Source: Giardia intestinalis (taxonomy: Eukaryota). Taken from it: a stretch of 2,889 nt of DNA. The notes beneath the pieces were generated by a model, which was not told the origin of the DNA, searched no databases, and saw only the letters and a list, made by a program, of their open reading frames with translations. The stretch is taken from assembly GCA_000002435.2 (NCBI GenBank), contig AACB03000027.1. One strand, 5' to 3'. A program made the position numbers and the translations under genes. Below, one piece after another: positions 1-2,889 of the stretch; the first letter of the stretch is position 1, and each line of letters begins with the position of its first letter.

Positions 1-2889
1 GACGAGATTGCCCAACTCAGAGACGCACTTTCTGCACACGCGGTCTCCTGCAGATGGTCTGCAAACAGCTATCAACCAGCTCGCCGACAAGGTTCAGGAC
101 AACGGCAGCCTGGTTACACACTCATGGGCAATATCGTCCAGGGTGTGGAATCTGCAAGCGCCGAGGGCGAATTGCCAGTTACCATTGATGGACTTACGGC
201 TCGCATCCGGGCTCTAGAAGATGCCGCTGCGGAAGCAAGGACAGATGCCGAACGGAAGCGCCGAGATCTCCAGGCTTCAGAGGAGAGGCTCGCCGCCAGG
301 ACCCGAGATCTCTCGAATCCGAAGAGCCCGGGGCAGCACGCCCGAATCCAGGCCCTTGAAGAGGCCCTCCAAGCCCGTGACGAAGAGCTTGCCCGCCTCC
401 AGGCCGCAGCCGCCGAGCCCGCCATTGACTATCCTGCCCTTTCTCCGGGCCGCGGAAGAGGCTCGCGCAGCCGACGAAGCCCGGCACCGAGGCGCTGGAC
501 GATCTCCGGCAGCAGCTGCGCGCCAACGAGCAGGCAGACCGGGCTGCAATCCAAAGCGCCCTTGGCCGACTGGCAGAAAGGTCAAGGAGAACGAAGGCCT
601 CACAAAGCGCCTCGGAGGACGCCGTCGCTAGCGGAGCCCGCGGAGCCCGCGCCTGGCCCAGACCACCACCGACTACGACGCGCCTCCTGGCCGAGAAGGA
701 CGCGAGATCAAGCGCCTCCAGGAGGCCCTGCTCTCCCAGCCCACCGGGGACGTCCTGGCACAGAAGGACGAGAGATATGCCCAACTCAGAGACGCACTTT
801 CTGCAACGCGGTCTCCTGCAGATGGTCTGCAAACAGCTATCAACCAGCTCGCCGACAAGGTTCAGGACAACGGCAGCCTGGTTACACAACTCATGGGCAA
901 TATCGTCCAGGGTGTGGAATCTGCAAGCGCCGAGGGCGAATTGCCAGTTACCATTGATGGACTTACGGCTCGCATCCGGGCTCTAGAAGATGCCGCTGCG
1001 GAAGCAAGGACAGATGCCGAACGGAAGAACGCGAGATCTCCAGGCTTCAGGAGAGGCTCGCCGCCCAGGACCCGAGATCTCTCGAATCCGAAGAGCCCGG
1101 GGCAGCAGCCCGAATCCAGGCCCTTGAAGAGGCCCTCCAAGCCCGTGACGAAGAGCTTGCCCGCCTCCAGGCCGCAGCCGCCGAGCCCGCCATTGACTAT
1201 CCTGCCCTTCTCCGGGCCGCGGAAGAGGCTCGCGCAGCCGACGAAGCCCGGCACCAGCAGGCGCTGGACGATCTCCGGCAGCAGCTGCGCGCCAACGAGC
1301 AGGCAGACCGGGCTGCAATCCAAAGCGCCCTTGGCCGACTGGCAGAAAAGGTCAAGGAGAACGAAGGCCTCAGCAAGAGCGCCTCGAGGACGCCGTCGCT
1401 AGCGGAGCCGCGAGCCCGCGCCTGGCCCAGACCACCACCGACTACGACGCGCTCCTGGCCGAGAAGGACCGCGAGATCAAGCGCCTCCAGGAGGCCCTGC
1501 TCTCCCAGCCCACCGGGGACTCCTGGCACAGAGAGGACGACGAGATTGCCCAACTCAGAGACGCACTTCGCAACGCGGTCTCCTGCAGATGGTCTGCAAA
1601 CAGCTATCAACCAGCTCGCCGACAAGGTTCAGGACAACGGCAGCCTGGTTACACAACTCATGGGCAATATCGTCCAGGGTGTGAATCTGCAAGCGCCGAG
1701 GGCGAATTGCCAGTTACCATTGATGGACTTACGGCTCGCATCCGGGCTCTAGAAGATGCCGCTGCGGAAGCAAGGACAGATGCCGAACGGAAGAACGCCG
1801 AGATCTCCAGGCTTCAGGAGAGGCTCGCCGCCCAGGACCCGAGATCTCTCGAATCCGAAGAGCCCGGGGCAGCAGCCCGAATCCAGGCCCTTGAAGAGGC
1901 CCTCCAAGCCCGTGACGAAGAGCTTGCCCGCCTCCAGGCCGCAGCCGCCGAGCCCGCCATTGACTATCCTGCCCTTCTCCCGGCCGCGGAAGAGGCTTCG
2001 CGCAGCCGACGAAGCCCGGCACCAGCAGGCGCTGGACGATCTCCGGCAGCAGCTGCGCGCCAACGAGCAGGCAGACCGGGCTGCAATCCAAAGCGCCCTT
2101 GGCCGACTGGCAGAAAAGGTCAAGGAACGAAGGCCTCAGCAAGCGCCTCGAGGACGCCCGTCGCTAGCGGAGCCGCGAGCCCGCGCCTGGCCCAGACCAC
2201 CACCGACTACGACGCGCTCCTGGCCGAGAAGGACCGCGAGATCAAGCGCCTCCAGGAGGCCCTGCTCTCCCAGCCCACCGGGGACGTCCTGGCACAGAAG
2301 GACGACGAGATTGCCCAACTCAGAGACGCACTTTCTGCAACGCGGTCTCCTGCAGATGGTCTGCAAACAGCTATCAACCAGCTCGCCGACAAGGTTCAGG
2401 ACAACGCAGCCTGGTTACACAACTCATGGGCAATATCGTCCAGGGTGTGGAATCTGCAAGCGCCGAGGGCGAATTGCCAGTTACCATTGATGGACTTACG
2501 GCTCGCATCCGGGCTCTAGAAGATGCCGCTGCGGAAGCAAGGACAGATGCCGAACCGGAAGAACGCCGAGATCTCCAGGCTTCAGGAGAGGCTCGCCGCC
2601 CAGGACCCGAGATCTCTCGAATCCGAAGAGCCCGGGGCAGCAGCCCGAATCCAGGCCCTTGAAGAGGCCCTCCAAGCCCGTGACGAAGAGCTTGCCCGCC
2701 TCCAGGCCGCAGCCGCCGAGCCCGCCATTGACTATCCTGCCCTTCTCCGGGCCGCGGAAGAGGCTCGCGCAGCGACGAAGCCCCGGCACCAGCAGGCGCT
2801 GGACGATCTCCGGCAGCAGCTGCGCGCCAACGAGCAGGCAGACCGGGCTGCAATCCAAAGCGCCCTTGGCCGACTGGCAGAAAAGGTCA
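1..2889 (+). CDS. Internal fragment of a large gene encoding a repetitive coiled-coil protein made of 256-aa tandem modules. There is no start or stop codon in the window, and the reading frame is broken by copy-specific 1-2-bp indels. Those indels are probably sequencing errors, and the alternative is a decayed pseudogene.
   Basis: The majority-consensus unit is 768 bp, which is 256 codons with no stop on the + strand. The translation shows heptad-type Ala/Leu/Glu/Arg/Gln periodicity (...LTARIRALEDAAAEARTDAERKNAEISRLQERLAAQ...IQALEEALQARDEELARLQAAAAEP...ALDDLRQQLRANEQADRAAIQSALGRLAEKVKENEGLSKRLEDAVAS...). In the raw sequence the consensus frame can be followed piecewise. It is frame 2 for about 779-1031, frame 1 for 1033-1378, frame 0 for 1380-1520 and frame 0 for 1536-1568. 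It is then frame 1 for 1570-1683, frame 0 for 1684-1998, frame 1 for 1999-2127, frame 0 for about 2157-2406, frame 2 for 2408-2554 and frame 0 for 2556-2889. Minus-strand ORFs are low-complexity A/R/S/G/P-rich shadows. The strand call is confident, but gene intactness is not. Confidence 0.55.
12..780 (+). repeat. Repeat unit copy 1 (769 bp). It is the most indel-laden copy, with about 18 small indels relative to the majority consensus.
   Basis: Hand alignment against copies 2-4. Examples are 'ctgcacacgcgg' versus 'ctgcaacgcgg', 'ttacacactcatg' versus 'ttacacaactcatg', 'ggaagcgccgag' versus 'ggaagaacgccgag', and 'cttcagaggagagg' versus 'cttcaggagagg'. Further examples are 'gccgccagg' versus 'gccgcccagg', 'gcagcacgcccg' versus 'gcagcagcccg', 'ccctttctcc' versus 'cccttctcc', 'caccgaggcg' versus 'caccagcaggcg', 'gcagaaaggtc' versus 'gcagaaaaggtc' and 'gagcccgcggagcccg' versus 'gagccgcgagcccg'. 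Confidence 0.9.
781..1549 (+). repeat. Repeat unit copy 2 (769 bp), with about 5 small indels relative to the consensus.
   Basis: Differences from the majority are 'aacgcgagatc' (-1 near 1031), 'caagagcgcc' (+2 near 1378), 'gactcctgg' (-1 near 1521) and 'cacagagaggac' (+1 near 1533). The start has 'gacgagagatatgcc' in place of 'gacgacgagattgcc'. Confidence 0.9.
1550..2314 (+). repeat. Repeat unit copy 3 (765 bp), with about 6 small indels and one substitution relative to the consensus.
   Basis: Differences are 'cacttcgcaacg' (-2 near 1568), 'gtgtgaatc' (-1 near 1683), 'ctcccggcc' (a g>c substitution), 'gaggcttcgcg' (+1 near 1998), 'caaggaacgaagg' (-2 near 2127) and 'gacgcccgtcgc' (+1 near 2157). 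Confidence 0.9.
2315..2889 (+). repeat. Repeat unit copy 4. It is partial, with 575 bp before the window edge, and has 4 small indels so far.
   Basis: Differences are 'gacaacgcagcc' (-1 near 2406), 'gaaccggaag' (+1 near 2555) and 'gcagcgacgaagccccggcacc' (-1 then +1, near 2773 and 2783). It is otherwise base-identical to copy 2. Confidence 0.9.

Follow-up and report, generated by a model that had tools for sequence, protein, structure and literature searches.

Frameshifts in a tandem array of coiled-coil repeats from Giardia are very probably residual consensus errors

Indels dominate the errors of long-read sequencing, and short-read assembly collapses tandem repeats (PMC6868369). The PacBio assembly of Giardia WB contained frameshifts resulting from read errors, together with 33 small, repeat-rich contigs derived from leftover reads (PMC7000408). 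Two annotated genes carry part of the repeat described here, GLP15_4739 of Giardia lamblia P15 (EFO62623.1) and DHA2_152437 of Giardia DH (ESU36892.1). Both lie in 90-100-kb Giardia contigs among ankyrin-repeat genes, and their proteins combine an all-helical middle part with C-terminal ankyrin repeats. A literature search using the identifiers DHA2_152437 and GLP15_4739 found nothing.

We analysed a stretch of 2889 bases, hereafter the window, which comprises 3.76 head-to-tail copies of a 768-bp unit and consists of repeat sequence only, without unique flank. The window shares unit positions 253-766 with both genes in the same frame, at 100% identity for DH and 94.2% for P15. In both gene models the unit occurs once, as a 0.67 portion from which residues 1-84 are missing; the window has at least 3.76 units. 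Because the repeat is found inside the DH and P15 contigs, we assign it to Giardia. By its identity to DH (assemblage A2) and to P15, the window appears nearest to assemblage A.

Structure of the array and its reading frame

The array was set up from repeat-finding, anchor words and a MAFFT alignment, with units cut at positions 1, 770, 1539 and 2304. An 18-base anchor recurs at 11, 780, 1549 and 2314 (anchor-word search of the window), and ungapped repeat families are spaced 765-771 bases apart throughout. Tandem Repeats Finder gave no output on the window because the longest period it covered was 500. On the plus strand, the three full copies occupy positions 1-769 (769 bp), 770-1538 (769 bp) and 1539-2303 (765 bp). 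The fourth (2304-2889) is cut by the end of the window after 586 bp and corresponds to unit positions 1-586. An earlier note, made from the window's sequence, had described four copies starting at position 12; the array itself is real, but only three of its copies are full, and it begins at or before base 1.

The majority consensus of the copies is exactly 768 bp long and, in frame +0, reads through 256 codons with 0 stops, which agrees with the clean 256-codon frame that the note had expected of a corrected unit. All other frames of the consensus, on both strands, contain 1 to 11 stops per unit. The encoded protein is rich in alanine, glutamate, leucine and arginine, and a Pfam search with the unit returned coiled-coil families only, all of them sub-threshold. 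The true sequence is one continuous open frame that encodes a coiled-coil repeat within an ankyrin-repeat protein of Giardia.

The ORF list also includes long ORFs on the minus strand (194-889, 862-1323 and 2374-2853; 153-231 residues), and one minus-strand frame of the corrected consensus has just one stop per unit. These ORFs are a by-product of GC-rich, stop-poor composition and give no evidence of a gene. The GC content of the repeat is 64.6%, compared to 47% for the P15 gene that bears it (L002, 8325-11327) and 43.7% for the surrounding 21-kb locus. One possible source of this excess is GC-biased conversion in a homogenising array.

Within the unit, a weak likeness is visible between the two halves (AINQLADKVQDNGSLVTQL versus ALGRLAEKVKENEGLSKRL, and DYDALL versus DYPALL; consensus residues 1-256). 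The best score for a half-unit internal duplication in the 256 residues, chosen among 32 rotations, was 73, compared to a mean of 44 and a maximum of 85 for shuffled sequences, and is not significant. The likeness hints at a trace of an older internal duplication, at a score that shuffled sequences can reach.

Differences between the copies

Compared to four consensus units, the window carries 18 inserted and 19 deleted bases, forming 33 indel events (4 of them 2 bases long), and a single substitution. Under five scoring schemes, some of which favoured substitutions, the counts ranged from 28 to 33 indel events and from 1 to 7 substitutions. These values match the note's tally of about 30 small indels and at most two or three substitutions, as does the finding that every variant is private to one copy, with no unit position hit in two copies. 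The sole apparent substitution, a G>C change in copy 3 at position 1981 of the plus strand (TCTCCGGGCCG to TCTCCCGGCCG, or CCGGG to CCCGG, taken from the sequence itself), is explained equally well by two run-length errors, CC to CCC plus GGG to GG.

The differences are unevenly distributed. Copy 1 has 10 inserted and 9 deleted bases relative to the consensus, copy 2 has 4 and 3, copy 3 has 2 and 5 in addition to its substitution, and partial copy 4 has 2 and 2. The overall error rate is 1.3% (38 of 2889 bases), and copy 1 is the most error-dense, with a rate of 2.5% compared to 0.9% elsewhere (2.8 times denser, p = 0.003). Positions 251-750 of the window (500 bases) hold 17 of the 38 error bases, and between 259 and 700 on the plus strand, within copy 1, the true reading frame shifts 15 times.

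As a result of these shifts, the true coding frame is split into 34 segments across the window, the longest uninterrupted one being the 344 nt at 1032-1375 (plus strand). This fragmentation accounts for the broken-up ORF list and its spurious entries on both strands, much as the note had predicted for gene callers. None of 11 ORF products from the window was present in the protein collection by exact look-up.

We also considered the sequence context of the indels. Deletions fell in runs of two or more bases in 12 of 19 cases (baseline 47%, p = 0.17), and insertions copied a neighbouring base in 12 of 18 cases (baseline 48%, p = 0.16), so that neither enrichment is significant. Seven of the 19 deleted bases lie outside any run, and 3 lie in runs of at least three. 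Roughly two thirds of all indels adjoin a run of at least two bases or repeat the base beside them, and several sit in short runs or AG/GA dinucleotide repeats.

Relatives of the repeat and a probable collapsed array

A word-indexed protein search identified one relative, P0001, a 255-residue partial protein on contig AKXV01000073.1. With the 256-residue query, the same search missed P0002, the product of GLP15_4739, and a 124-residue junction query gave no match; because known relatives were missed, its negative results carry no weight. P0002 was recovered when P0001 served as the query of an exhaustive HMMER search, and DHA2_152437 belongs to the same 90% cluster as P0002. P0002 has C-terminal ankyrin repeats (Pfam Ank_2, 2.7e-14), and its single-sequence AlphaFold2 model (pLDDT 43) is all-helical, with nothing further to be drawn from it. 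Further copies were found neither in plasmids and phages (blastn), nor in bacterial and archaeal genome contigs or viral contigs, nor in metagenome contigs (peptide and exact 30-mer searches).

At the nucleotide level, DH contig AHGT01000037.1 (L003, 7561-8074) agrees with the consensus at all 514 bases of unit positions 253-766, without a gap. The P15 sequence (assemblage E; L002, 9882-10394) differs from it by 30 mismatches and 0 gaps over 513 bp. The AKXV01000073.1 sequence (767 bp, rotated into register) differs by 139 substitutions and 0 internal indels; 31, 22 and 86 of these substitutions fall at codon positions 1, 2 and 3, and the resulting codon changes are 72 synonymous and 45 non-synonymous. 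A metagenome homologue with 49% protein identity (L004) keeps the frame across the unit junction, gaps occurring in the protein alignment only. While DH and P15 cover unit positions 253-766, positions 1-252 are represented by two divergent sequences only, AKXV01000073.1 (82% nucleotide identity) and the metagenome homologue (49% at the protein level).

The ratio of indels to substitutions is 33:1 within the window and 0:169 between lineages (Fisher's exact test, p = 3.3e-37). Assuming that indels make up 20% of real mutations, the probability of observing at least 33 among 34 is 2e-22. On the strength of the DH, P15, AKXV01000073.1 and metagenome comparisons, real divergence of the repeat proceeds purely by substitution, preserving the frame and under constraint, and the differences within the window are the reverse. 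The note had argued that genuine divergence would be dominated by substitutions and had proposed a comparison with an orthologous locus. The comparison bears the argument out: DH matches the consensus over all 514 aligned bases, and P15 and AKXV01000073.1 have none of the window's indels.

The DH alignment also bears on the length of the gene. The identical block begins at unit position 253, directly behind a diverged copy of the unit end that is richer in AT (LLSQPISDVLAR versus LLSQPTGDVLAQ), and it stops at unit position 766, where unique sequence follows. This block is the exact remainder expected from collapsing an array of the form [253..768][1..768]n[1..766]. The DH and P15 gene models (~1000 residues) are thus probably too short, and the array was probably collapsed to 0.67 unit in older assemblies. 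By sequence similarity, the window would represent the orthologue of DHA2_152437 and GLP15_4739 or a very recent paralogue; because it includes neither the N-terminal helical region nor the C-terminal ankyrin repeats that flank the block in those genes, a paralogous locus is possible and identity with the DH and P15 locus is unproven.

AKXV01000073.1 (L001, 1-767; GCA_000302615.1), 767 bp long, bears the label of Streptomyces sp. SS. Like the window, it carries the 256-codon unit, in circular permutation, with 82% DNA and protein identity and the same frame open; it differs from the window in belonging to another lineage, as its 139 substitutions indicate, and in being one period long. Because its length is one period, it is probably a collapsed array as well. 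Third-position GC is 75% in this contig, and a range of 70-75% was noted for the repeat; a value of 75% is low for Streptomyces. The contig is probably a eukaryotic contaminant of the Streptomyces assembly, possibly from another Giardia assemblage. A bacterial (Streptomyces) origin of the repeat itself was rejected on the basis of its third-position GC (70-75%) and its location inside 90-100-kb Giardia contigs.

The 49%-identical metagenome homologue (L004, 1-668; ENA ERZ27277194 k141_155295) includes the 84-residue segment that the DH and P15 models lack. Its contig is AT-rich and unrelated from about base 505 onwards and may be chimeric.

Origin of the indels and comparison with known systems

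Taken together, these data make it very likely that the window represents an identical in-frame array of a Giardia gene and that its indels are residual consensus errors. We propose that the array consists of identical in-frame 768-bp repeats, whose units each specify an alpha-helical coiled coil of 256 residues, within an assemblage A-like Giardia intestinalis gene that is either orthologous to DHA2_152437 and GLP15_4739 or their very recent paralogue. The 33 small indels would be absent from the genome and would stem from errors left in a consensus of low depth or poor polishing, most likely one built from long reads. Long reads are favoured because the assembly kept at least 3.76 identical 768-bp copies apart instead of collapsing them. 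Among identical tandem copies the placement of reads is ambiguous, and polishing therefore tends to fail. An error rate of 1.3% is far below that of raw long reads, which indicates that the window is not a single read but a consensus. The excess of errors in copy 1 fits a depth that falls toward one contig end and would be unexpected for mutation in homogenised copies. Because the indels show no significant homopolymer enrichment, the error model is not tied to a particular platform. The note had attributed the indels to an uncorrected long-read or homopolymer-prone consensus; an origin in error is supported by the alignment, the consensus and the orthologues, and the homopolymer component is the part that did not reach significance.

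It is improbable, although less so than the remaining alternatives, that the indels are errors of another kind, arising in 454 or Ion Torrent reads or at the poor-quality ends of Sanger reads. Older Giardia assemblies did use Sanger and 454 sequencing (PMC7000408, PMC6868369), and the two thirds of indels that touch a run of at least two bases or copy a neighbouring base are what such reads might produce. However, reads no longer than 1 kb are too short to resolve 3.76 identical 768-bp copies, and assemblies made from such reads collapse the repeat, as those of DH and P15 (a partial unit) and AKXV01000073.1 (a 767-bp unit) appear to have done. The proportions of deleted bases outside runs (7 of 19) and in runs of three or more (3) are also unlike pyrosequencing, and low-quality Sanger ends would be expected to add substitutions and N calls.

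We regard it as highly improbable that the indels are real. The repeat would then be a recently homogenised coding array shaped by a nearly pure indel process and now decaying, with slippage-type frameshifts in each copy, either as a young pseudogene array or as a gene whose frame is corrected at the level of the transcript or ribosome. The indels do stand in the sequence as given, and several occur at the short runs or AG/GA repeats where replication slippage can happen. Nonetheless, no ordinary mutation spectrum would yield 33 indel events and 1 substitution, and no mutation is common to several copies, which leaves no nested history. The DH and P15 orthologues are intact genes, the former identical to the consensus, and the repeat is under a frame-preserving constraint, with the substitutions of its relatives biased to third codon positions. 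The clustering of errors in one copy likewise argues against mutation. Compared to real indels, a real protein with many identical 256-residue coiled-coil units is much likelier.

Least probable of all is a mosaic consensus merged from alleles, nuclei or a mixed population, for which we found no specific support: Giardia is tetraploid (PMC7048089), but allelic variation would be substitution-dominated rather than composed solely of frame-breaking indels, and the consensus exactly equals the DH sequence.

With residual consensus error as the preferred explanation, we consider the frameshifts, with high confidence, to be an artefact, and the underlying feature to be an in-frame coiled-coil tandem repeat that is ordinary apart from its length and involves no new biology. 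The value of the result lies in curation: proteins predicted from the window should be kept out of databases, and the corrected 768-bp consensus supplies the true repeat unit. The corrected unit further suggests that the coiled-coil array is longer than the DH and P15 models show, and a side result is the probable contaminant contig in the Streptomyces sp. SS assembly.

Compared to known long-read artefacts, the window differs in showing no significant homopolymer bias, and its platform is inferred. In other respects it resembles long-read artefacts in tandem repeats: its differences are dominated by indels, private to single copies and scattered, the consensus of the copies restores the ORF, and one part of the contig is worse than the rest. 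The same problem of false frameshifts is known from the PacBio assembly of Giardia WB (PMC7000408) and from long reads generally (PMC6868369).
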